Under the pieces are notes generated by a model that was given only the letters and a program-made list of their open reading frames with translations, was not told where the DNA came from and made no database searches. Shown here one piece after another: positions 14,799-26,890 of a stretch of 64,000 nucleotides of DNA. Source of the DNA: Syntrophaceae bacterium (GTDB lineage Bacteria; Desulfobacterota; BSN033; UBA1163); NCBI GenBank assembly GCA_013388635.1, contig JACAEX010000080.1:5803-69802 (forward strand), in the 5' to 3' direction. How positions within the stretch are numbered: position 1 is the stretch's first letter; each line of letters starts with the position of its first letter. The translations under genes and the position numbers were made by a program.

Positions 14799-14893
14799 TG
14801 GCGGAAGTGCATGGGAATCGAACCCACCGCGGACATCTTCTGCCCGCCACTGGATTTGAAGTCCAGGAGGCCCACCAGGACCTAACCACTTCC
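14799..14893 (-). tRNA. selC: tRNA-Sec (selenocysteine tRNA, anticodon UCA)
   Basis: The minus-strand read is GGAAGTGGTTAGGTCCTGGTGGGCCTCCTGGACTTCAAATCCAGTGGCGGGCAGAAGATGTCCGCGGTGGGTTCGATTCCCATGCACTTCCGCCA (95 nt). Anticodon stem CTGGA/TCCAG with loop CTTCAAA gives anticodon TCA. Long variable arm (GCGGGCA-GAAGA-TGTCCGC). T-loop TTCGATT with a 5-bp stem. 7-8 bp acceptor stem and an encoded CCA. Confidence 0.8.
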
Positions 14894-16156: not shown

Positions 16157-17173
16157 TCACCCTCGCCCTCTCCCGTTGGGGGAGAGGGCAGATGTTGTTC
16201 GGCGTGAGCGTAACCGTTCCAGTACTTCGTTCATATCTTGAGGGATCGGAGAAATGAATCGGACCCTTTCCCCTGTTCGGGGATGATCGAACCCCAGTCG
16301 ATGGGCATGAAGGGCCTGGCGATTCATCCTCGCCACACATTCCTTCAAGAAAGGATCATGGATACTCCCCGGTCTTCCCTTCCTTCCATAAACAGGGTCT
16401 CCTAATAGGGGATGGCCCGTCGAGGAGAAATGGACCCGGATCTGGTGGGTCCGACCTGTCTCGGGGAAGACCTCGAGGAGGGTGAAACCATAAAACCTTT
16501 CGATCACCTTCCATCGGGTGATGGCCATCCTTCCCTTTTTGGTGCGAGTGGACATTCGTTTTCTTTCACTCGGATGTCTTCCAATAGGAGAATCGATCAG
16601 GCCTTCATCCTTGCTGAATTGACCATAGGCGATGGCCAGATAGACCTTTTCCACTGTGCGGTTTTTGAATTGCTTGGTCAATTGATGATAGGCCTGATCA
16701 TCTTTGGCAACGACCATCACGCCCGACGTATCCTTATCCAAACGATGGACGATCCCAGGCCGCAAGGTTCCATTAATCCCGCCAAGGTCTTTACAATGAT
16801 GGAGAAGTGCGTTGACCAGCGTGCCGGAAGGGTTTCCAGCGGCTGGATGAACGACCATTCCTGGAGGCTTATCGACGACAATGATCGAAGGGTCCTCATA
16901 GAGGATGTTGAGGGGAAACGGCTCGGGTTTAACGTCGAGCGGCCTGGGCTGAGGAATAATTCCCGATACCCGATCGCCCGGTTTCACCCGCACACCGGGT
17001 TTCGTCGGCCTCTGGTTCAGCAGGATGCTTCCCGCATCGATCAGTTTCTTGATCTGAGAGCGGGAGAGATTGAGATCGGCTTCAGAGAGGAATTGATCGA
17101 GGCGTCTTCCCTCGTCCCGTTTTGTTATGGTGATGGAGAAATGTTTTCCTATCTCAAATCTATTCTCATACAT
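16157..17173 (-). CDS. rluD: 23S rRNA pseudouridine synthase RluD (RluA family)
   Basis: Start at internal ATG 17173 (MYENRFEIGKH...). S4 domain followed by the HRLDKDTSG catalytic motif. Confidence 0.85.
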   Translation of the reverse strand: MYENRFEIGKHFSITITKRDEGRRLDQFLSEADLNLSRSQIKKLIDAGSILLNQRPTKPGVRVKPGDRVSGIIPQPRPLDVKPEPFPLNILYEDPSIIVVDKPPGMVVHPAAGNPSGTLVNALLHHCKDLGGINGTLRPGIVHRLDKDTSGVMVVAKDDQAYHQLTKQFKNRTVEKVYLAIAYGQFSKDEGLIDSPIGRHPSERKRMSTRTKKGRMAITRWKVIERFYGFTLLEVFPETGRTHQIRVHFSSTGHPLLGDPVYGRKGRPGSIHDPFLKECVARMNRQALHAHRLGFDHPRTGERVRFISPIPQDMNEVLERLRSRRTTSALSPNGRGRG

Positions 17174-17231
17174 TGCATGTGGATTGATCGTGCATCTTTC
17201 AAGGATCGTAGAACATAATCTTTTTGGTTCG

Positions 17232-18680
17232 CTATGCACGATGCGCTTTGCTCTCTGCGGTTTTTGCAAGGGCCTTTTCAATTCCGGCGGCTAAGAGAGG
17301 AATCTCTTCATCCGAAATCGTTCTCATGTCCAGGATCAGTCCGTCCTTGCTGATTCGGGAGATGATCGGAGGCTCGGCTTTCCTCAAACCTTCTTCGAGA
17401 CCGTTCACGGACAGATCAACGGGCTTGAGGCGAACGACGACCGTTGGAAGTTCCTGAAGGGGGAGAGCTCCTCCACCGACCTGAGAGATATCCTCCTTGA
17501 GGACCGGGGTTGTCTTCTGCTTAATCCTTTCTGACAGGCTTCTTAGGAGACGCCTTGCCCTCCTCTTCAGTACAGCCCGATCGATTTTCAACATTCGAAG
17601 GGTCGGGATTTCTTCCATCGCCATCTTTTCATCGAGGTAGAGGAGGAGTGTGGATTCGAGCGCAGCTAAGGTCAGCTTGTCGATGCGAAGGGCTCGGGTC
17701 AGGGGATTGATTTTGACGAGGTCTAAGATGGCCTTCTTCCCCAAGATGATTCCGGCCTGGGGACCGCCCAGAAGTTTATCGCCGCTAAAAGTGACCAGGT
17801 CCACACCGGTCTGGATCGCCTCCGGGACAGTGGGTTCTCTTTCCAATCCATATTGACTGAGGTCAAGAAAGCAACCGCTTCCCAAGTCGTGCATCACAGG
17901 GAGGTGATTCTCTTTTCCCAGTTGAACGAGATCTTGGAGAGGGGTATCGGCGGTGAAGCCCATCACCCTGAAGTTGCTGGTATGGACCTTCAGGAGCAAG
18001 GCCGTCTGGGGGCCGATCGCCCTCTGATAGTCGCCGATATAGGTTCGATTCGTCGTCCCGACCTCTCTGAGAAAAGCTCCACTCCGTTTCATCACGTCAG
18101 GGATCCGAAACGCCCCTCCGATCTCGACCAGCTCCCCTCTCGAGACGATCACCTCTTTTCCTTCTGCGATCGTATTGAGGGCCAGCAAGACCGCGCCGGC
18201 GTTGTTGTTCACCACCATGGCCGACTCCGCACCTGAGAGACGGCAGAGGATCCCTTCCACATGGGTATAGCGGCTTCCCCGATCGCCCCGATCGAGGTCG
18301 TATTCCAGATTGGAGTAACCTCTGGCGATCTCTATCATGTGCTGAAGCGCAGAAGGGGCCAGGGGTGATCTTCCGAGATTGGTGTGGATCACCACTCCGG
18401 TCGCATTGATGACGCGACAGAGCCGGGGCTGGATCTGAACGGTGACCTCCCTCTGGAAAAGGGGATAAAGATTCTCGAAGGAGAATATCCCATCGTCAAG
18501 ATCGGAGAGGTCTTCCGTTTTCAGGATCTCTGAACGGAGCCTTTCCAGTCCCTTTCGAACGGCCTCCACCACGACGGCTCGAGGATGGACCTTCAAAAGG
18601 TCAGCCATCTCTGGCCTTGAGAGGATTTCATCGACCTTCGGTATCTTACGAAGGACCTGTTGACGAAGGGAGGGAGACAT
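17232..18680 (-). CDS. selA: L-seryl-tRNA(Sec) selenium transferase
   Basis: 482 aa. SelA motifs are present (INATGVVIHTNLGRS; FSGDKLLGGPQAGII with the PLP lysine). The N-terminus SLRQQVLRKIPKVDEIL resembles E. coli SelA SLYSQLPAIDRLL. Its 5' end overlaps the 3' end of the upstream radical-SAM ORF by about 35 nt. Confidence 0.9.
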   Translation of the reverse strand: MSPSLRQQVLRKIPKVDEILSRPEMADLLKVHPRAVVVEAVRKGLERLRSEILKTEDLSDLDDGIFSFENLYPLFQREVTVQIQPRLCRVINATGVVIHTNLGRSPLAPSALQHMIEIARGYSNLEYDLDRGDRGSRYTHVEGILCRLSGAESAMVVNNNAGAVLLALNTIAEGKEVIVSRGELVEIGGAFRIPDVMKRSGAFLREVGTTNRTYIGDYQRAIGPQTALLLKVHTSNFRVMGFTADTPLQDLVQLGKENHLPVMHDLGSGCFLDLSQYGLEREPTVPEAIQTGVDLVTFSGDKLLGGPQAGIILGKKAILDLVKINPLTRALRIDKLTLAALESTLLLYLDEKMAMEEIPTLRMLKIDRAVLKRRARRLLRSLSERIKQKTTPVLKEDISQVGGGALPLQELPTVVVRLKPVDLSVNGLEEGLRKAEPPIISRISKDGLILDMRTISDEEIPLLAAGIEKALAKTAESKAHRA

Positions 18681-20412
18681 TCGGTTTCCTCCTCATCAGG
18701 AGCGTCTTCACAATCTTGATGAAGTTCATCCGGATGAATCGGGTGGGCCACTCCAGTTCCTTCTTCTCGCAGACCGTTGACATGCTGTAGGCGTGAAGGG
18801 AGAGATCCCCGGGCAAAATCGAATCCAGGGCCCTCTCCCTTTCCTTCGGGTCAGAAAGGGCCATGATCTCGTCGATCTGTTTCATCACCCGGACAGCAGC
18901 CTCGATCCGCCTCTCGACCGATTCAGCCGTCTTTCGGTCGATCAGGCCAAATTCGGCCTTCAGACGATTGAGCCTCTTCCCCGCTTCATAGGTGCTATAG
19001 ACGATTTCATCACGGCTCATCCATCGGGTTTCGTAGTTGAGGATGTATTTCCAGCTGGGGGCCATTAAGGCCTGACGGTGCTCTTCAACGGTCCTGCAGA
19101 AAAGCCGGTATCCATATCTCTCCGGTTCTTCGAAGGCAGCGCTTCCAGGGTCTAAGAAAGGGGCGAGGGGAGAGATGAAGGGAATGAGTTTCGGATAGGG
19201 CTGGAATCGCTTTAAGAGGTATTGGCAGTAATCAACCGTCTCCAGCACCGAGTGATAGGTCTGCCCTGGAAGACCGGTCATGAAGAAGAGATCGATCCGT
19301 TTGGAACCGAGGTCAATGGCATCGCCGATCATCCTCTCCAGAGATTTGTTGTCATAAGGCCTTCCGAAGGTCTTTCGAACCTCTTCGTCGTGCGATTCCG
19401 GAGAGATCTCGATATTGAAATTCGGAATGGCCTCGGCAATCCTTTCGAGTCGATCCCTTGAGGGAGGGACAAAGAATTCGAAGGCGATGTGATTGGTGAT
19501 CCGCCTCTTTTTCATCTCCTGAAGAAAGGTGAGGCCATAGGCCTCACCGGGCTGGAAGATATCGCCGATGATCATCACCGGCGCGAGGAGGTGGTCTGCG
19601 ATATGGAAGATATCCTGGGCCAGAAGCCTTGGGTCTCGGTAGGCGGGTCTCCTCCGGTTAGCCATGGACCGAAACGTCTGGGACGAGCCGCCGCACGTTT
19701 TGCAGTGATAGCTACATCCGCGGCAGGTGAAGACCGCCGTAACCGGATAGGTGTACCAGTCGATAAAAGGCTGGTAACCCACGGGATCGGCATACCTGAC
19801 CACCTTCTTCATGATGTGGCGGTAGTCGATCGCCATGTCGTCGAGGTTCTCCGGCACGTAGGAGAGGGGATTGACCCGAATCCCATTTCCTCCGTCGCGG
19901 TAGGTGAGATTGGGAATATTTTGGAAATCTCCCTTTCCCTTGATCGCCCGGAGGAGCTGGAGAAGAGGCTTCTCCGTGGAATCTCCTTTGACCACAAAAT
20001 CGACGAAAGGATATTGGCGGAGGATCTCCTCGTGATAGTAGGTGGCGGAGAGACCGCCTAAAATGACCGGTGTTTCAGGGTGAAATCTCTTGATGATCTC
20101 CGCCAGAGCCAGCGCGCCCTGGACATGGGCCATCCAGTGAAGATCGAGACCGAAGGCCACGGGCTTACTCTTTTGGATGAGCCGTTCCACATCGAACCTT
20201 CTATCCTTCAGCATCTTCAAAGCGATATTGATAATCCTCACCCGGAGGCCGTGGCGTTCCAGGTATTCTGAGAGGCTGGCAAATCCAATCGGGTACATCT
20301 CAAAGATAGGGGTTGACGGAACGACATCACTGATCGGGCCATGGATCCCGGGTCTTTTCCTGAAATCGTAAAGGGTAGGGGGGTGGAGAAGGATCAGGTC
20401 AATGGTGGCCAT
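18646..20412 (-). CDS. B12-binding-domain radical SAM protein (class B; BchE/HpnJ-like)
   Basis: 588 aa. N-terminal cobalamin-binding Rossmann-like domain (DLILLHPP...YPIGFASLSEYL...VILGG). Radical-SAM CxxxCxxC motif (CSYHCKTC). Confidence 0.8.
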   Translation of the reverse strand: MATIDLILLHPPTLYDFRKRPGIHGPISDVVPSTPIFEMYPIGFASLSEYLERHGLRVRIINIALKMLKDRRFDVERLIQKSKPVAFGLDLHWMAHVQGALALAEIIKRFHPETPVILGGLSATYYHEEILRQYPFVDFVVKGDSTEKPLLQLLRAIKGKGDFQNIPNLTYRDGGNGIRVNPLSYVPENLDDMAIDYRHIMKKVVRYADPVGYQPFIDWYTYPVTAVFTCRGCSYHCKTCGGSSQTFRSMANRRRPAYRDPRLLAQDIFHIADHLLAPVMIIGDIFQPGEAYGLTFLQEMKKRRITNHIAFEFFVPPSRDRLERIAEAIPNFNIEISPESHDEEVRKTFGRPYDNKSLERMIGDAIDLGSKRIDLFFMTGLPGQTYHSVLETVDYCQYLLKRFQPYPKLIPFISPLAPFLDPGSAAFEEPERYGYRLFCRTVEEHRQALMAPSWKYILNYETRWMSRDEIVYSTYEAGKRLNRLKAEFGLIDRKTAESVERRIEAAVRVMKQIDEIMALSDPKERERALDSILPGDLSLHAYSMSTVCEKKELEWPTRFIRMNFIKIVKTLLMRRKPNVSLPSSTGPS

Positions 20413-20417
20413 GTCAA

Positions 20418-21563
20418 TTATCTCGCGGACTGGGCTTTCTTCGGTTCTGGAAATTTTGATAGATAGAGATCGACCATCTTTCGGATGCGAGGGTCATCTT
20501 TCGTACTTTCGCCGAGCAGGAAGATCGCATTGGTAAATTCGTTCTTTCCCTGGAGTTGTCTGAGGTTTCGCTCAACCTCCTCTTTTGCCTTTTGCCATTG
20601 GGCCTTTTCGGCCTCTGTTGCCCCTTTTTCCATCAATCGATAGTGGAGGCTCCTCAGGCCCTGTTCCATGGTCTGCTTGGCCGCGGTGTTGTAAAAGAAG
20701 GGTTCTCGATTATGAAAGGTAAGATCGATTCTTCCCGCATACATTCCCTTCGGGGCGGTCTGGAGGACGATCGTTCTGTTATAAGCGACACGGGGATAGG
20801 GAAGGTTGATCCCTGTATGACTGCCTATGATGAGGTGAATTCCAGAAAGGGTGTTTGCCAACTCCAGATCCTTGGGATAGCCCAGGTGGCTCAAGAGGAT
20901 GACGAGATCGGTTTTGGGTTGAAGTTCTTTGATCATGTTCTGGGCCGTTTCAACAGGAGATTTGAGGATCAGGCCTTTTTTTCTAAGATCTCCTTCGCCC
21001 AGGAAAAGATCAGGGGAGAGAAGGCCAAAGATACCTATTCGCAGACCGTCGATCTCTTTTAAGAGATAGGGCTGAAAAAGAGGTTTTCCTGATGACTCAT
21101 CAAAGAGGTTGGCAGAGAGGAGAGGGAAATTGGCCTTCTTCGCAATCTCTAAGAGGAAGTCCTTCCCGAGGGTGAGATCGTCATCGCCAACCCCCAGGGC
21201 GTCATAACCCATCAGATTGAAACTCTCGATGATCAGGTGAGCCCTTTCAGCGACCATCTTCAGCTCATCTTCCTGAACGGGCTTAGAAAACTTCTTAAAT
21301 AGAAGATCGCCTGCATCTAAGACCAGCACTCGTTTTTCAGCCTCCCTCGTTTCCCTCACCCATGTTGCCCTTCTGGCCAGACCGCCAAAACGATTCCTCG
21401 GGTCTCAGCCAGGACAGGGCTCGATCTCCCCATTGATATTATTGCTGTAAAGGATCGTAAGGTTCTTGACCGGGTTTTGGGCATGACAAGGGATGCTCGG
21501 ATTTGCCCAGAGAAACCCCAAGATCGAAAGGAGGATAAATAGCAGTTTTGCAGGCCCCATCAT
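20418..21563 (-). CDS. candidate selenoprotein: secreted 5'-nucleotidase-like metallophosphoesterase-domain protein with in-frame TGA (CPGU motif)
   Basis: The minus-strand frame runs from ATGATG at 21563 (GAGGGG RBS) through 52 codons (MMGPAKLLFILLSILGFLWANPSIPCHAQNPVKNLTILYSNNINGEIEPCPG). It then hits TGA at 21405-21407 and continues in frame (DPRNRFGGLARRATWV) into tracked ORF 20418..21359, whose annotated start is GTG. Homology to the UshA-type N-domain is continuous across the TGA. If the TGA is a true stop, the gene is split or a pseudogene. Confidence 0.5.
21405..21407 (-). other. in-frame TGA (putative Sec codon) in metallophosphoesterase-like gene
   Basis: Codon 53 of the 20418..21563 reading frame. 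Local context is C-P-G-TGA, a CxxU-like motif. Confidence 0.45.
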
Positions 21564-21879
21564 TTACCCCTCAATTCAATCAAATTCATATATACCCCAT
21601 CCCTCCCTTAGAGTCAAATAGGGACAGCGCCCATTAAACATAATTTTTTGCTTCGATAGATGAGACAAGATTGGCGTTGAAACCTTTTGGGGAATCCCGG
21701 CTTTCTCAGGATTTCAGCAATCCAGAACGTTGGCTGCTCAGTGCGGGCAAGGATCTTCTTCCGCATGAATTGTGAGGATCGCTCGATTTAGGGTGGAAAT
21801 AGGATTTTATCCACCTACACAGAGGACCACGAGGTTTGCGGTGTGGGGATTCGATACTCGTATATCCTTTTCTGATCAA

Positions 21880-22722
21880 TTATGAAGTCCAGGGGTTTGG
21901 GACGGGCCGATTATACCCTTTCTGAGAGGCTAAGATGTCGAGATGGAGAGTAGCCACATCCTCTAAGATTGGTTCACATTCTTCGATCTTTCTCAGGTCG
22001 ATGGTCTTGATATATTGATGGCATTTTTCGCAAAGGTCGATGCGATAGGCTTCCTCCCCCTCGGCATAGAAGTATTGCAGGGAGCCCCGTTCTTTGTTTC
22101 CGCAGAAAGGACATGACAGTCTATCGATTCGCCACTCAAATCCGCAATAGGAGCAGAGGAGGTAACGTTTTCCTCCCTCGCCTTTCAAGAGAGCAAAGGA
22201 GGGTAGGGAACCACAGATCGGGCAGTGGCCTTTGAGCCAGGTTTCAGCATCCACTTCTTGACCGAGCCTTTTCACCCCTTCCTCAAGAGAGGGCTTCAAG
22301 CTTTCATGAAGAAGGAAGAGAAAGACCTTCCGATCCATTTCGAATTGATCAGCCACCTTTTCTCCTTCTATCTCTCCGGTGAACACCTTCTTCAGATCGA
22401 ATCTTTTTTGGCTGATAACCTCCCGGATCTTTTCCACCTGCTCAGCCATATGAGGGGTTGCCTCTTTTGCAATGTTGCAGAGCGAGTGAAATAAAAGAGA
22501 GGAGGCCTCAAGGTCCACCGGGAAATCCTTTCTTTCGAGCATTGAAAAGCCTTCCCTGGCCAACAGCTCCTTCCACTCCTTTTTGAGATGAACGGGTTCG
22601 ACTTTCAAGGAATCTTTGATCTTCTCCTGCTCTTCCCTGACTTGCTGGTAGAAGTTCAGGATCTCTGTGTAGCCGGGTCGCTTCTTTTTGAGATGCTGAA
22701 TCCTTTTTCTTAGCTTTTCCAA
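21880..22722 (-). CDS. fdhE: formate dehydrogenase accessory protein FdhE
   Basis: 280 aa with four CxxC pairs (CPICG...CSYCG...CPFCG...CEKCH), the characteristic FdhE arrangement. Confidence 0.8.
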   Translation of the reverse strand: MEKLRKRIQHLKKKRPGYTEILNFYQQVREEQEKIKDSLKVEPVHLKKEWKELLAREGFSMLERKDFPVDLEASSLLFHSLCNIAKEATPHMAEQVEKIREVISQKRFDLKKVFTGEIEGEKVADQFEMDRKVFLFLLHESLKPSLEEGVKRLGQEVDAETWLKGHCPICGSLPSFALLKGEGGKRYLLCSYCGFEWRIDRLSCPFCGNKERGSLQYFYAEGEEAYRIDLCEKCHQYIKTIDLRKIEECEPILEDVATLHLDILASQKGYNRPVPNPWTS

Positions 22723-23121: not shown

Positions 23122-23856
23122 TTACCCGATCGTCATGCTTCTCAGGGGTTGAAAGATACGTCTAAGGGCCATCTTCCTTGTGATCCCGATCGTATTGTCC
23201 GCCACAGCTCTCTTATGATACTTCTTGGGATCGTCCACGAGGAGGTAAATCACCCTCACGTCATCCGGATTGGCCAGCATGGCTTCCTGATAAAGACCTT
23301 TGACTTCTTCGAGCCTCTTGTTTGCCCTCTCCAGGATCTCCCTCCGATCACCGAAACTCATCGCTCCGGTGGGACAGGTCTTGACGCAGGCAGGCAGCAT
23401 TCCCTCCTTGACCCTGTCGAAACACATTGTGCATTTCGCCATGGTTCCAGAAGCGGGATGGAACCTTGGGATGTCGTAGGGACAGGCCTCTCGGATCTCT
23501 TTAAACTCGTCGGCCTTTATCTTCACCTTCGGGTTGAAAACCACTGCCCCGGTCTTTTCGTCCTGGATGATGGCGCCCTTTGCCTTCCCGTCTGCCACCT
23601 CTTTGCAGGGAGGGGTGAGACAGTGGCGACATTGATCCGGGAAGAAATACCATTTCGGTTCCCCTCCGGGTATTGCCACCTCATTGAATCTTACCAACTT
23701 AAACGTGTAAACGGAAAGATCAGCTGGATTTTGATGATTTCCTCGCTGAAGGGTTTTCGTCCCAGGATTCTTATTCCACTGCTTGCAGGCGATCTGGCAG
23801 CCTCGGCAGGCAGTACATTTCGTCGTGTCGATAAAGAAAGATTTTCCTTCTGTCAT
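23122..23856 (-). CDS. fdhB: formate dehydrogenase iron-sulfur (beta) subunit, FdnH/HybA-like 4x[4Fe-4S]
   Basis: Multiple CxxCxxCxxxCP motifs (CTACRGCQIACK; CRHCLTPPCKEV; CPYD; CTMC...CVKTCP). A GAGGAGGTGAG RBS lies 6-8 nt upstream. It sits immediately downstream of fdhA. Confidence 0.85.
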   Translation of the reverse strand: MTEGKSFFIDTTKCTACRGCQIACKQWNKNPGTKTLQRGNHQNPADLSVYTFKLVRFNEVAIPGGEPKWYFFPDQCRHCLTPPCKEVADGKAKGAIIQDEKTGAVVFNPKVKIKADEFKEIREACPYDIPRFHPASGTMAKCTMCFDRVKEGMLPACVKTCPTGAMSFGDRREILERANKRLEEVKGLYQEAMLANPDDVRVIYLLVDDPKKYHKRAVADNTIGITRKMALRRIFQPLRSMTIG

Positions 23857-23872
23857 TTATCTCACCTCCTCC

Positions 23873-26800
23873 TCAGCCCTTTTTCGCGGCCGGTTTTTGC
23901 GTGATCTTGCGAACGTTGGCCATAAAGGCCTTGGATTCCGGAATCATGGTATTGGGATCACCGATCGTAGGAGTGAGGAGATTCGCACTCTCTCCTCCGT
24001 CCTTTGGGTGGAGCCAGCCAAAATGCCACGGAATTCCTATCTGGTGAACGGTCTGCCCGGCGACGTTGAACGGCTTCAGCCGAGAGGTCACAATAGCCAC
24101 GGCCACGAGCCTTCCCCTTGGAGTTTCCACAGACACCCGGTCACCGTTTTTGATCCCTCGCAGCTTGGCCAGTTCGATGCTCATCTCACAAAAGACCTGA
24201 GGTTCAGCCTCAATCAGCCAGGGCAGCCATCGGGTCAATACGCCGGTCTGCCAGTGTTCGGTAACCCGGTAGGTGCTGCAAACAAAGGGGTATCTCGGAT
24301 CGCAGGTCGCAAATGTGTCCGGACCTCCCTCGAAGATCTTGACCACAGGGTTGATCCTCTGGCTGGACATCAGATTCTTCTCGATCGGACATTCGAGAGG
24401 CTCGTAGTGTTCAGGGAAAGGACCGTCCTTCAAGCCAGGTCCGAAGATGGATGATACTCCATCGGGTTTCATAATGAACGGATAGGCTCCGGTGGTCCCC
24501 ATGGGAGGCACGGCATTGTCAGGGACGTCGCCTATCCATTTCTTTTCCGTCGGGTCCCATCTGAGGAGGGGCCGTTTTGGGTCTCGAGGATTTCCGTCAA
24601 GATCCACTGAGGCTCTGTTGTAGATGATTCTGCGATTCAGTGGCCAGCACCATGACCACTCGGGATAGAGGCCCAATCCGGTCGGGTCGGTCTTCTTTCT
24701 ACGGGCAGCCATATTCCCGGCCTCGGTATAGCTGGCAGAATAGAGCCAGTTCCCGCAAGAGGTCGTCCCATCATCTTTTAAAGCGACAAAATTGGGAACT
24801 AATTTGCCGGTCGTGAGATCGTAGCCGTTGATCTCTTTTGCAACCTTATGGATATCAAAATGGCCACCGGATTCGTAGTCCCACTTCAGGTTTAAAATCG
24901 GCTCCGGGAAGGCCCCCTTTTCCTTTTCATAGAGGGCCCGAACCTTCTTAAAGAGTTCATATATGATATCGCCATCGGGCTTCGCCTCTCCAGGAGGATT
25001 GGCACATTTATAGCGCCATTGCATCCAGCGACCGCTGTTCGAGATGCTTCCTTCTTTTTCGAGGAAGGCGGCACAGGGGAGCTGGAAGACCTCGGTCTTG
25101 ATCTTCTTCGGATCCATTCCCGGGCCCTTCCAGAACGATCCTGTCTCGCTGTCGAAGACGTTGACATTGACCATCCAGTCAAGCTTTGCCAAGGCCTGGC
25201 GGACCTTTCCCGCATGGGCGCTTGAACAAGCAGGATTCATTCCCCAGGCAAAGAAACCGGTGAAGGTCCCTTTATACATCTCATCGAAGAGATTTAACCA
25301 TGAGGCATCCTGAGTCGGATCGAGTTTGGGCATCCACGAGTATCCAAAATCGTTCTCTTTCGTCGCTTTCTCTCCAAACATCGATTTTAAGAAGCTCACT
25401 AGGTATTTGGGCCGGTGTCTCCACCAGTTCACACTTCTTGGGTCCTTCGTCGTCGGAGTCGTCTTATTGTAGTCGGCAATGGTTGGCCACTGGGCCCTTG
25501 GAGTGGGTAAATACCCGGGGAGGATATGGAAAAGCAATCCCTGATCGGTTGACCCCTGGACATTGGATTCACCCCGGAGGGCGTTGACACCTCCTCCTGC
25601 AATCCCCATATTTCCGAGGAGATCCTGGATGATCGCCATGGCTCGAATGTTCTGGACGCCGACCGTATGCTGAGTCCATCCCATCGCGTAGAGGACGGTC
25701 CCTGCTTTATCAGGGGCACCTGTTGAGCCATATGCCTTGTAGACGTTTTCCAGGTCGGCCATCGGGGTTCCAGTAATTTCAGAGACCTTTTGGAGGGTAT
25801 AGCGGGAATAATGTTTCTTCAGGATCTGGAAGACGCATCGTGGGTCTTGAAGGGTCATATCCCTCTTCGGAATCCCATTTTCGTCCTTCTCCAAAGCCCA
25901 GGTCGATTGATCATAAGCCCTCTTGACCGGATCATAGCCTGAAAAGAGGCCGTCATCAAAACTATACTTGGGGTTGACGATGAATGAGGCATTGGTATAG
26001 TTCTTGACATAAAATTCATCGTAGAGGTTGTGGTCGAGAATATACTTGATCATGCCTCCGAGAAAGGCGATATCGGTTCCCGAACGAAGCCGCACAAAGA
26101 GATCGGCCTTTGTCGAGGTCCGGGTGAATCTGGGATCCACATGGATAAAGATCGCCCCTCTATCCTTCGCGGCCTGAATCCATTTAAAAGAGACCGGGTG
26201 ATTCTCGGCCACGTTTCCACCCATGTTTAGGATCACATCCGCGTTTCTGAAGTCGATATAATGATTGGTCATTGCACCGCGTCCGTACGACTCTGCCAGA
26301 GCCGCTACCGTGGCGCTGTGTCAGATACGGGCCTGATGTTCGATATAGACGATCCCCAATGCCCTGAGGAACTTCTGATAGAGCCAGCATTCCTCATTGT
26401 CCAGGGCCGCGCTTCCAACGGATGCGATTCCATTGGTTCGATTGACCACCTGGCCCTGTGAATTTTTCTCCATAAAGCTTGCGTCACGGCTCTTCTTGAT
26501 GTTGGCCGCGATCTTATTCAGGGCCCATTCCCAGCTCACCTCTTTCCAGGTGGTGCTGTATGGGGCACGATAACGGACCTTCTGAAGCCGATGTGGATTG
26601 ACAGCGATTTGATAACTCGAGGCCCCTTTGGCGCAGAGAGCTCCTTCGTTGATGGGATGGTCAGGATCTCCCTCGGCGTTAATCACCTTTCCTTTGGCAT
26701 CGGTGTGAACGATGATTCCACAGCCGACCGAGCAGAAACAACAGATCGACGTCGTCTCCTTCGCACCCTTGATTCTAAGTTGTTGGGCATAGACATCCGC

Positions 26801-26890
26801 AGCGGACAGATCGAACCCCAGGCCGCCCATCACCGTCCCTGCAGCAGTGGCGCCCGAGATCTTTAAAAAGGTTCTTCGGGTAATCTTCAT
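23873..26890 (-). CDS. fdhA: formate dehydrogenase catalytic subunit, selenocysteine-containing, Tat-exported (FdnG/FdhA)
   Basis: Two tracked ORFs (26321..26890 and 23873..26272) are joined in frame through the TGA at 26321-26323. This gives ...GIVYIEHQARI-U-HSATVAALAESYGRGAMTNHYIDFRNADVIL..., the conserved Sec active-site context of FdnG/FdhF. The N-terminus has a twin-arginine signal (TRRTFLKISGATAAG) and a CxxCxxxC 4Fe-4S motif. Confidence 0.9.
26284..26309 (-). promoter_or_regulatory. putative SECIS hairpin downstream of fdhA UGA
   Basis: On the minus strand, after an 11-nt spacer from the UGA, GCGGCUC-UGGCA-GAGUCGU can form a roughly 7-bp GC-rich stem-loop. The spacing fits bacterial SECIS elements. 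It was folded by eye only. Confidence 0.3.
26321..26323 (-). other. UGA selenocysteine codon of fdhA
   Basis: It is the stop codon of tracked ORF 26321..26890. The frame continues into ORF 23873..26272 with the consensus Sec-FDH sequence. Confidence 0.85.

Follow-up and report, generated by a model that had tools for sequence, protein, structure and literature searches.

An in-frame TGA in a UshA-like gene of a Syntrophaceae bacterium: evidence for a mis-called variant of the UshA-like selenoproteins

A stretch of contig JACAEX010000080.1 from a Syntrophaceae bacterium raises the question whether two adjoining minus-strand open reading frames (ORFs), which are separated by a TGA codon, represent two genes or a single gene for a selenocysteine-containing (Sec) relative of the 5'-nucleotidase UshA. 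All coordinates given here are positions in the window, i.e. the whole stretch of 64 kb that was analyzed. Our comparative analysis indicates that the locus is almost certainly a bona fide selenoprotein gene whose UGA-53 is decoded as Sec. This status is predicted from the conservation of the TGA, the existence of cysteine homologs, a selenocysteine insertion sequence (SECIS) under selection at the RNA level, and the presence of the Sec machinery in the window.

The ORF list shows two pieces here, one of 52 aa and one of 313 aa that begins at GTG 21359, but the sequence-only reading of this DNA, made without database searches, had proposed one minus-strand frame that runs from ATGATG through the TGA into the 313-aa ORF, and a reading of the frame bears this out. 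The ATGATG start (21563-21558) is preceded by GAGGGG (21572-21567), the TGA at 21407-21405 is codon 53, and another 328 codons follow 3' of it in the same frame; the 313-aa ORF is merely the portion of the gene downstream of the TGA. Upstream of the TGA the frame encodes MMGPAKLLFILLSILGFLWANPSIPCHAQNPVKNLTILYSNNINGEIEPCPG and reads up to NNINGEIEPCPG directly before it; the flanking residues are TILYSNNINGEIEPCPG on the near side and DPRNRFGGLARRATWVRETRE on the far side, and the longer stretch encoded thereafter is DPRNRFGGLARRATWVRETREAEKRVLVLDAGD, on to the TAA at 20420-20418. The N-terminus resembles a signal peptide (MMGPAKLLFILLSILGFLWANPSIPCHA, followed by cleavage before Q), and its hydrophobic core and cleavage site, (S/T/H)xA followed by Q, are kept among the homologs. 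The protein would thus be periplasmic or exported via the predicted secretory signal peptide. The gene comprises the following features:

20418..21563, minus strand: complete predicted selenoprotein gene, 381 codons including UGA-53 (frame reading; stop TAA 20420-20418)
21567..21572, minus strand: Shine-Dalgarno-like GAGGGG, 3 nt 5' of the ATG (sequence reading)
21480..21563, minus strand: putative Sec-type (secretory) signal peptide, MMGPAK / LLFILLSILGFLW / ANPSIPCHA, cut before Q (sequence reading)
21405..21407, minus strand: in-frame UGA, predicted Sec codon 53 of the motif C50-P-G-U53 (conserved TGA column, Cys homologs)

The homology to 5'-nucleotidases spans the TGA. Phmmer alignments with the structures 3ivd, 2z1a, 7d0v and 1ush start at residues 16-34 of the query, those of 3ivd, 2z1a and 7d0v at residues 32-34, hence upstream of the TGA, and cross it, which shows that the similarity to UshA-type proteins across this codon had been read correctly from the sequence.

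A search with the read-through product against 5.8 billion proteins returned 1095 hits, of which the best 120 were inspected, and a genomic scan of one genome per GTDB species yielded 23 loci, all of them from metagenome-assembled genomes (MAGs) labelled Thermodesulfobacteriota, Syntrophaceae, Syntrophorhabdus or Deltaproteobacteria. The TGA is located at the identical column in 24 of the 26 distinct related loci that were fetched, and neither TAA nor TAG ever occurs there; one of the two remaining loci carries Cys (L025, TGC, giving CPGC) and the other Leu (TTA). The codon is embedded in a near-invariant (Y/F)(S/T)NNINGEI(D/E)PCPx-TGA context with nearly invariant residues on both sides. Its recurrence across 24 independent assemblies is far beyond chance, and it also speaks to the concern that the TGA might be an assembly error. 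In the protein databases this conservation is largely hidden: 117 of the 120 best homologs are calls of 265-325 aa that start just after the TGA column, and a mere three are full length. Two of these three show W at the Sec column (P0002, L001:438-1577; P0043, L004:355-1524), and we rejected them as true non-Cys substitutions, because the underlying DNA is TGA and the W stems from a gene caller with a TGA=Trp code. Public metagenome calls, apparently by use of this code on short contigs, thus contain full-length proteins that are wrong at the Sec position. The third full-length relative has the TTA codon and is considered further below.

The counterpart of the TGA forms is a sister subfamily of 333 aa, found with L025 as the query, that comprises dozens of uninterrupted IEPCP[G/S]C proteins. 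Cys occupies the Sec column in L025, L028-L031 and P0121-P0161, as CPGC or CPSC in L025, L028-L030 and P0121-P0161, and a relative of 388 aa has the motif EPCETC (CETC in P0257). TGA forms and uninterrupted Cys forms at one and the same column are the classic signature of a Sec/Cys pair, and the comparison of orthologs that the sequence-only reading had named as a check thus came out in its favor. The 333-aa subfamily also includes a block of similar 267-aa calls (P0162-P0176). Such calls were considered as further Sec forms and rejected on the one that was examined: L028 (L028:5761-6120) is a CPSC member with an in-frame stop within the signal-peptide region, which explains its 267-aa call, and this stop might mark a pseudogene, an error, or a gene that uses another start and yields a product that is not exported. 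A tblastn search against plasmids recovered canonical 5'-nucleotidases only and no members of the clade.

RNA folding of the region 3' of the UGA revealed the hairpin UUUUGGC-GGUCUG-GCCAGAA (21390-21371), which begins 15 nt downstream of the codon and is extended by two further base pairs (U21393/C21392 with G21368/G21369). Its loop places G26 and U27, counted from the U of the UGA, at the apex:

21368..21393, minus strand: putative SECIS hairpin; 5' stem 21390-21384 UUUUGGC, loop 21383-21378 GGUCUG, 3' stem 21377-21371 GCCAGAA

Across 25 TGA-containing sequences hardly any change occurs in the loop or in the five pairs next to it, and the lower stem shows a few compensatory changes from UA to CG (four times) and from UA to GC (once). 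The hairpin, 15-37 nt 3' of the UGA, overlaps the codons of the conserved peptide F-G-G-L-A-R-R, and sequence conservation alone therefore proves little. More telling is the variability at third codon positions, where the codons for G60, G61, L62 and A63 have entropies of 0, 0.48, 0.92 and 0.24 bits, compared with mostly 1.3-2.0 bits (range 0.63-1.99) at other conserved four-fold sites of the same alignment and 1.27-1.98 bits at ten other conserved Gly columns. The Cys-form genes L025, L028, L029, L030 and L031 share the GGLA peptide with the Sec forms but spell it differently: for the first Gly all five use GGA and 25 of 25 Sec forms use GGC, and GGA destroys the loop-closing C-G pair. The SECIS-like structure that the sequence-only reading had suggested looking for is hence present in the Sec forms and broken in 5/5 Cys forms, and the predicted hairpin is, as judged from codon usage, under RNA-level selection. 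A scan of positions 21250-21500 against Rfam (E<=10) gave chance hits only and no SECIS family.

The selenocysteine machinery and a second selenoprotein are encoded in the same part of the window, as the earlier reading had noted:

14799..14893, minus strand: tRNA-Sec (selC), anticodon TCA (tRNA prediction)
17232..18680, minus strand: selA, L-seryl-tRNA(Sec) selenium transferase (TIGR00474, 622.6 bits)
23873..26890, minus strand: Tat-signal formate dehydrogenase alpha subunit, fdhA, with Sec (HQARI-TGA-HS, TGA 26323-26321)
23122-23856, minus strand: fdhB, 3' of fdhA
21880-22722, minus strand: fdhE, 3' of fdhB

The fdhA gene is an independent selenoprotein gene in the same gene string as the UshA-like gene; the ORF list splits it likewise, into ORFs of 189 and 799 aa, and its SECIS-like hairpin (GCGGCUCU-GGC-AGAGUCGU) again carries a G in the apical loop, which lies about 27 nt downstream of the U of the UGA. 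An alternative genetic code was considered and ruled out, because TGA serves as the ordinary stop of 16 of the 41 long ORFs in the window, including fdhA and rluD. The listed ORF for the RluD-like pseudouridine synthase (16157-17281, minus strand) begins at a TTG and shares 50 nt with the 3' end of selA; translation probably starts at a codon further downstream. Taken together, the conserved TGA, the Cys homologs, the SECIS and the Sec machinery support the proposal of the sequence-only reading that this is one gene with a recoded UGA.

What the encoded protein might do was approached via its fold and its active-site residues. An AF2 model was made for the homolog P0002 (69% identical, with the TGA read as W), which stands in for the window protein and reached a predicted TM-score (pTM) of 0.82. 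In a Foldseek comparison it resembles most closely the N-domains of 5'-nucleotidases, UshA and CD73 among them (E 1e-19 to 1e-23, query TM-score [TMq] 0.55-0.65). The C-terminus (residues ~290-370 of the P0002 model) begins with two long helices, then returns to the sheet with a strand and ends in a helix. The C-terminal substrate-binding domain of 5'-nucleotidases was not found, as there is no Pfam match to it and the alignments to PDB entries end at about residue 286. Across the whole window protein nothing in Pfam exceeds its threshold (Metallophos 12.9 bits, cut-off 21.5). The phmmer alignment places the metallophosphoesterase motifs as follows:

DxH motif: N42-x-N44, with N41 before it; replaced
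GD motif: D86; kept
GNHExD motif: G-D127-D128-D129-L-(S/T); replaced
H motif: H226; kept
GH motif: H249 (GSH249); kept

The residues N41-N42-x-N44, GDDD, D86, H226 and H249 are invariant in all Sec-form clades, which share ~45-70% mutual identity. Invariant substitutions across such divergent clades argue for a site that is remodelled and under selection instead of decayed. The replacement of DxH and GNHE, recognized in the sequence-only reading, is therefore confirmed, but its description of the ligands as degraded is not tenable, since NNxN and GDDD are invariant and D86, H226 and H249 are retained. It had also positioned the CxxU motif where the HHGH/DxH motif normally lies, but N42-I-N44 fills the DxH position, and C50 and U53 come 6-9 residues later, within the loop that leads into the GGLAR helix. 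The absence of the catalytic His/Asp dyad makes nucleotidase activity unlikely, and the window protein is presumably not a nucleotidase. A Cys of the same loop in the snake-venom 5'-nucleotidase 7d0v is aligned with U53 by HMMER; this residue would correspond to Cys51 in the Cys51-Cys57 disulfide of CD73.

The sequence-only reading knew of no described family of Sec-containing metallophosphoesterases, a statement that does not hold. A 'COG0737, UshA-like' family with a CxU motif was among the previously described selenoprotein families in the 2008 Global Ocean Sampling (GOS) study (PMC2398784), UshA-like selenoproteins reappear in reviews of 2022 (PMC9312934) and 2026 (PMC13188914), and the latter lists a UshA-like selenoprotein family 2 with a CxxU motif as 'GenBank annotated'. 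NCBIfam provides two hidden Markov models (HMMs), namely NF041198 ('UshA_like_PCGU', cut-off 275 bits, 519 positions) and NF049981 ('UshA_like_Sel_2', cut-off 140, 262 positions). The best HMM match of the window protein is NF041198, with 257.2 bits over profile positions 14-382 of 519 and hence below the cut-off; four other members of the clade score 207-248 bits, all below it as well. With NF049981 the window protein reaches 79 bits, with profile positions 1-89 as the best stretch, and the same four members reach 59-82 bits. From an exhaustive profile search of 1.84 billion representatives, which yielded 603 clusters at E<=1e-30, we picked NF041198 members of 520-570 aa with (D/E)PC[G/S]C and at least four C-terminal CxxCH motifs; they pass the model with 302-467 bits over the full profile. 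Several C-terminal CxxCH haem-binding motifs are present in P0272, P0296, P0306, P0323 and P0338, and the last ~80 positions of the NF041198 profile match a decahaem-cytochrome-like ORF (L026:3214-5364). NF041198 thus combines a UshA-like domain of the CxU type with a multihaem tail, which implies that the known UshA-like selenoprotein family acts, by its predicted haem-binding region, as an electron-transfer enzyme.

Judged from its motifs and architecture, the clade of the window protein is a third, unannotated subfamily of UshA-like selenoproteins that is characterized by NNxNGEI(D/E)PCPxU, a helical C-terminus and the lack of both a C-terminal nucleotide-binding domain and a multihaem tail. 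It is a variant of the known UshA-like selenoproteins, neither the first Sec-containing metallophosphoesterase nor a new selenoprotein class. Its newness is confined to the failure of both HMM cut-offs, a motif spacing and architecture unlike those of NF041198, and the mis-calling of its members in databases, where GenBank and JGI label them 'hypothetical protein' or '2',3'-cyclic-nucleotide 2'-phosphodiesterase' and truncate them at the TGA. A literature search on nucleotidase, selenoprotein and SECIS retrieved nothing functional for UshA-like selenoproteins.

The gene neighborhood provides further indications. Immediately downstream of the UshA-like gene lies a radical S-adenosylmethionine (SAM) gene:

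18646..20412, minus strand: TIGR04190-family B12-binding radical SAM gene (672.9 bits, cut-off 500)

This gene begins 5 nt past the stop of the selenoprotein gene, and its last 35 nt are shared with selA; translational coupling links the window copy of the UshA-like gene to the B12/radical-SAM gene and selA. The trio UshA-like / radical SAM / selA recurs in at least 15 related loci, its genes abutting or overlapping with the same tight spacing, and is usually preceded, at looser spacing, by fdhA-fdhB-fdhE; nothing else is conserved upstream of the UshA-like gene, between fdhE and the gene, in the other loci. A literature search on TIGR04190 found no papers.

Sequence clustering distinguishes the 'type A' of the window from a paralogous 'type B' clade (tail HDSRGTYRPKP), which can share a MAG with type A and has identical site residues. 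In six of seven loci acr3, an arsC of the low-molecular-weight protein tyrosine phosphatase (LMW-PTP) type or arsM lies within ~5 kb upstream of the type-B gene, and it is directly adjacent in four; ArsM reaches 363-370 bits and ACR3 409 bits. The CxxC relative P0257 adjoins an ACR3 that is 87% identical to that of L027. The ars-linked loci, with type B or the CxxC relative, are:

L016:113-1830
L018:211-3042
L019:1-7074
L020:4551-7161
L027:3477-6783
L004:2-1524
L031:1253-3958

This linkage suggests an arsenic-related role for the CPxU protein family. The neighborhood often includes a sigma-54 two-component pair as well as a thioredoxin-like lipoprotein. The type-B gene of L027 (L027:5881-6783) stops early, after 300 aa, and is disrupted near the second His motif (SHH--RYG), probably as the result of a frameshift.

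Considered as a whole, the evidence is probably best explained by an exported Sec protein with UshA fold that belongs to the third subfamily and harbors a putative oxyanion or redox site. The redox/oxyanion part follows from the CxxU/CxxC pairing, the haem tail of the sister family, the ars neighbors and the precedent of Car1, an As(V) reductase of Rufibacter tibetensis that is reported to have evolved from a metallophosphoesterase, to need Cys74 and Cys76 and to be encoded beside arsM (Shen et al. 2024, Mol Microbiol 122:201, as cited in PMC12124457). The specific mechanism, i.e. Cys/Sec redox chemistry on an oxyanion, is a tentative proposal, held with rather low confidence although it is the likeliest of the mechanisms considered. 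The remodelled acidic site (N42, N44, D86, D127-D128-D129, H226, H249) would bind a metal, a tetrahedral oxyanion as a phosphate analogue, or both, and the neighboring C50-x-x-U53 would perform nucleophilic or redox chemistry via a selenenyl-sulfide cycle, in parallel to Car1. The substrate might be arsenic-related for type B, as hinted by the paralogs beside acr3, arsC and arsM, and possibly selenium-related for the selA-linked type A, as hinted by the co-translation of the window copy with the B12/radical-SAM gene and selA. A still broader and rather speculative scenario would regard the UshA-like CxU/CxxU proteins as widespread exported oxyanion reductases (of arsenate, selenate/selenite or thio-oxyanions) that receive electrons from the fused haem tail (NF041198) or from separate partners (window clade), with the type A copy, coupled to the B12/radical-SAM gene and selA, as a step of selenium acquisition or processing that feeds Sec synthesis.

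Several observations weigh against this interpretation. The third full-length relative has TTA (Leu) in its DNA at the Sec column (L002:8133-8135 and L003:724-726), seen in two assemblies of one low-coverage population; the contig has 4x coverage, and the second assembly probably stems from the same run. This relative keeps the SECIS codons GGC GGT CTG GCC and the synteny of fdh / UshA-like / radical SAM / selA, and the TTA might result from faulty sequencing, have arisen by mutation very recently, or represent a form in which Leu is tolerated. The covariation of the SECIS is modest, as most pairs never vary (RNAalifold and pair counting), and the RNA argument thus leans mainly on the synonymous-site entropy and the contrast with the Cys forms. 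The CPxU loop has <50 in the predicted local distance difference test (pLDDT) of the P0002 model, so that its nearness to the metal site is unsupported. A search for ars genes across the window of the type A copy found none, and the arsenic link is therefore transferred from the paralogs. Finally, detoxifying arsenate reduction is normally cytoplasmic, a location that fits poorly with an exported protein.

The alternative that survives best is that Cys50 and Sec53 are direct metal ligands in a rebuilt site, which would make the protein a metalloenzyme or metal-binding protein with selenium coordination and not a redox couple. The sequence-only reading had raised this possibility, which we consider unlikely. 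In its favor, the site has lost four canonical residues (D to N, H to N, N to D, H to D) but retains D86, H226 and H249, C50 and U53 follow the first metal-binding motif by only 6-9 residues, and FdhA and metal-resistance selenoproteins provide precedents for selenium-metal coordination (PMC13188914). However, redox motifs typically have the CxxU or CxxC spacing with a Pro in between, the sister family pairs its CxU with a multihaem electron-transfer tail, and the model does not place the CPxU loop with confidence. A non-catalytic periplasmic binder or chaperone, whose Cys/Sec pair captures As(III), selenium or a soft metal and passes it on to partners, is improbable in our view: it would fit the loss of the catalytic His-Asp dyad, the missing substrate-binding C-terminal domain (Pfam gives just a sub-threshold Metallophos match) and the neighboring ars genes (paralogs) and selA (window copy), but the invariance of D86, GDDD, H226, H249 and NNxN at ~45-70% identity points to a functional pocket beyond a mere thiol/selenol clamp, and Sec is usually kept for a catalytic advantage. 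It is very improbable that the protein has remained a phosphoesterase or nucleotidase, or acts as a SoxB-like thiosulfohydrolase, and merely carries an accessory Sec; the fold and the best structural matches are those of 5'-nucleotidases and SoxB (TIGR04486) is the second-best NCBIfam match, but DxH and GNHE(x)D are gone, the C-terminal 5'-nucleotidase domain is missing, and the scores of SoxB (98.6 bits, cut-off 550) and Metallophos are far too low. The readings of the TGA as a lesion or true stop (pseudogene, assembly error, or two genes of 52 and 313 aa) can cite the gene callers that split there, the truncated calls among 117 of the 120 best homologs and the TTA in one relative, but are effectively excluded by the recurrence of the TGA, and never of another stop, in 24 independent assemblies whose sequences on either side of it are under strong purifying selection, by the uninterrupted Cys homologs and the RNA-level selection on the SECIS, and by the lack of the first beta-strand, motif I and the signal peptide in the downstream ORF alone.

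The clade is abundant, and its practical relevance lies in annotation: its members nearly always enter the databases as shortened proteins of ~300-313 aa under the names 'cyclic-nucleotide phosphodiesterase' or 'hypothetical protein'. Among the 120 best homolog clusters this mis-calling affects no fewer than 117, in some of the records the TGA is read as Trp, and neither NCBIfam selenoprotein model catches the clade. A dedicated HMM together with a SECIS rule would fix hundreds of records and allow better counts of the selenoproteome of Thermodesulfobacteriota. For UshA-like selenoproteins no function has been proposed since 2008 or earlier, and the combination of the selA/radical-SAM operon, the paralogs in ars clusters, the haem-fused sister family and Car1 leads to a concrete, testable hypothesis of oxyanion redox chemistry. 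The novelty is modest; the value lies in the correction of a systematic annotation gap and in a testable function for a long-uncharacterized selenoprotein family.

A comparison with the known systems delimits the clade. The family NF041198, which corresponds to the COG0737 UshA-like CxU selenoproteins of Zhang & Gladyshev, shares with it the UshA-like N-domain, the signal peptide, the placement of Sec or Cys in the loop just ahead of the GG(L)AR helix and the loss of the canonical DxH/GNHE (e.g. GSDLRG with GDAD, SSNVVG with GEKD). It differs in the motif P-C-G-U (CxU; PCGC or PCSC in the passing proteins), as opposed to C-P-x-U (E-P-C-P-G-U, CxxU), in a CxxCH multihaem C-terminus of ~140 residues (profile ~383-519) instead of the helical segment, with no CxxCH in the window protein, and in a genomic context other than the selA/radical-SAM operon or the ars clusters. 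NF049981 agrees with the clade in CxxU spacing (the motif as listed in PMC13188914), fold and the alignment of the N-terminal ~90 residues, but its profile has 262 positions compared with 381 aa in the window protein, and this comparison is one of profile scores and the published motif. UshA, CD73 and the 5'-nucleotidase of Thermus thermophilus (1ush, 4h1s, 2z1a) resemble the window protein in the fold of the N-domain (Foldseek E about 1e-22, TM about 0.63), in their secreted or periplasmic location, in the bridging Asp (D86) and in the two His ligands (H226, H249); the window protein is set apart by NxN for DxH, GDDDL(S/T) for GNHExD, the lack of the C-terminal substrate-binding domain, and its predicted Sec. 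Car1, likened here by its description only, contains Cys-x-Cys without Sec in place of CxxU, and the window copy is exported and located outside an ars cluster. Car1 reportedly shares with the window family the metallophosphoesterase scaffold and a close pair of essential Cys, and with the paralog clade the ars/arsM neighborhood, which shows that members of this superfamily can take on oxyanion redox chemistry (PMC12124457).

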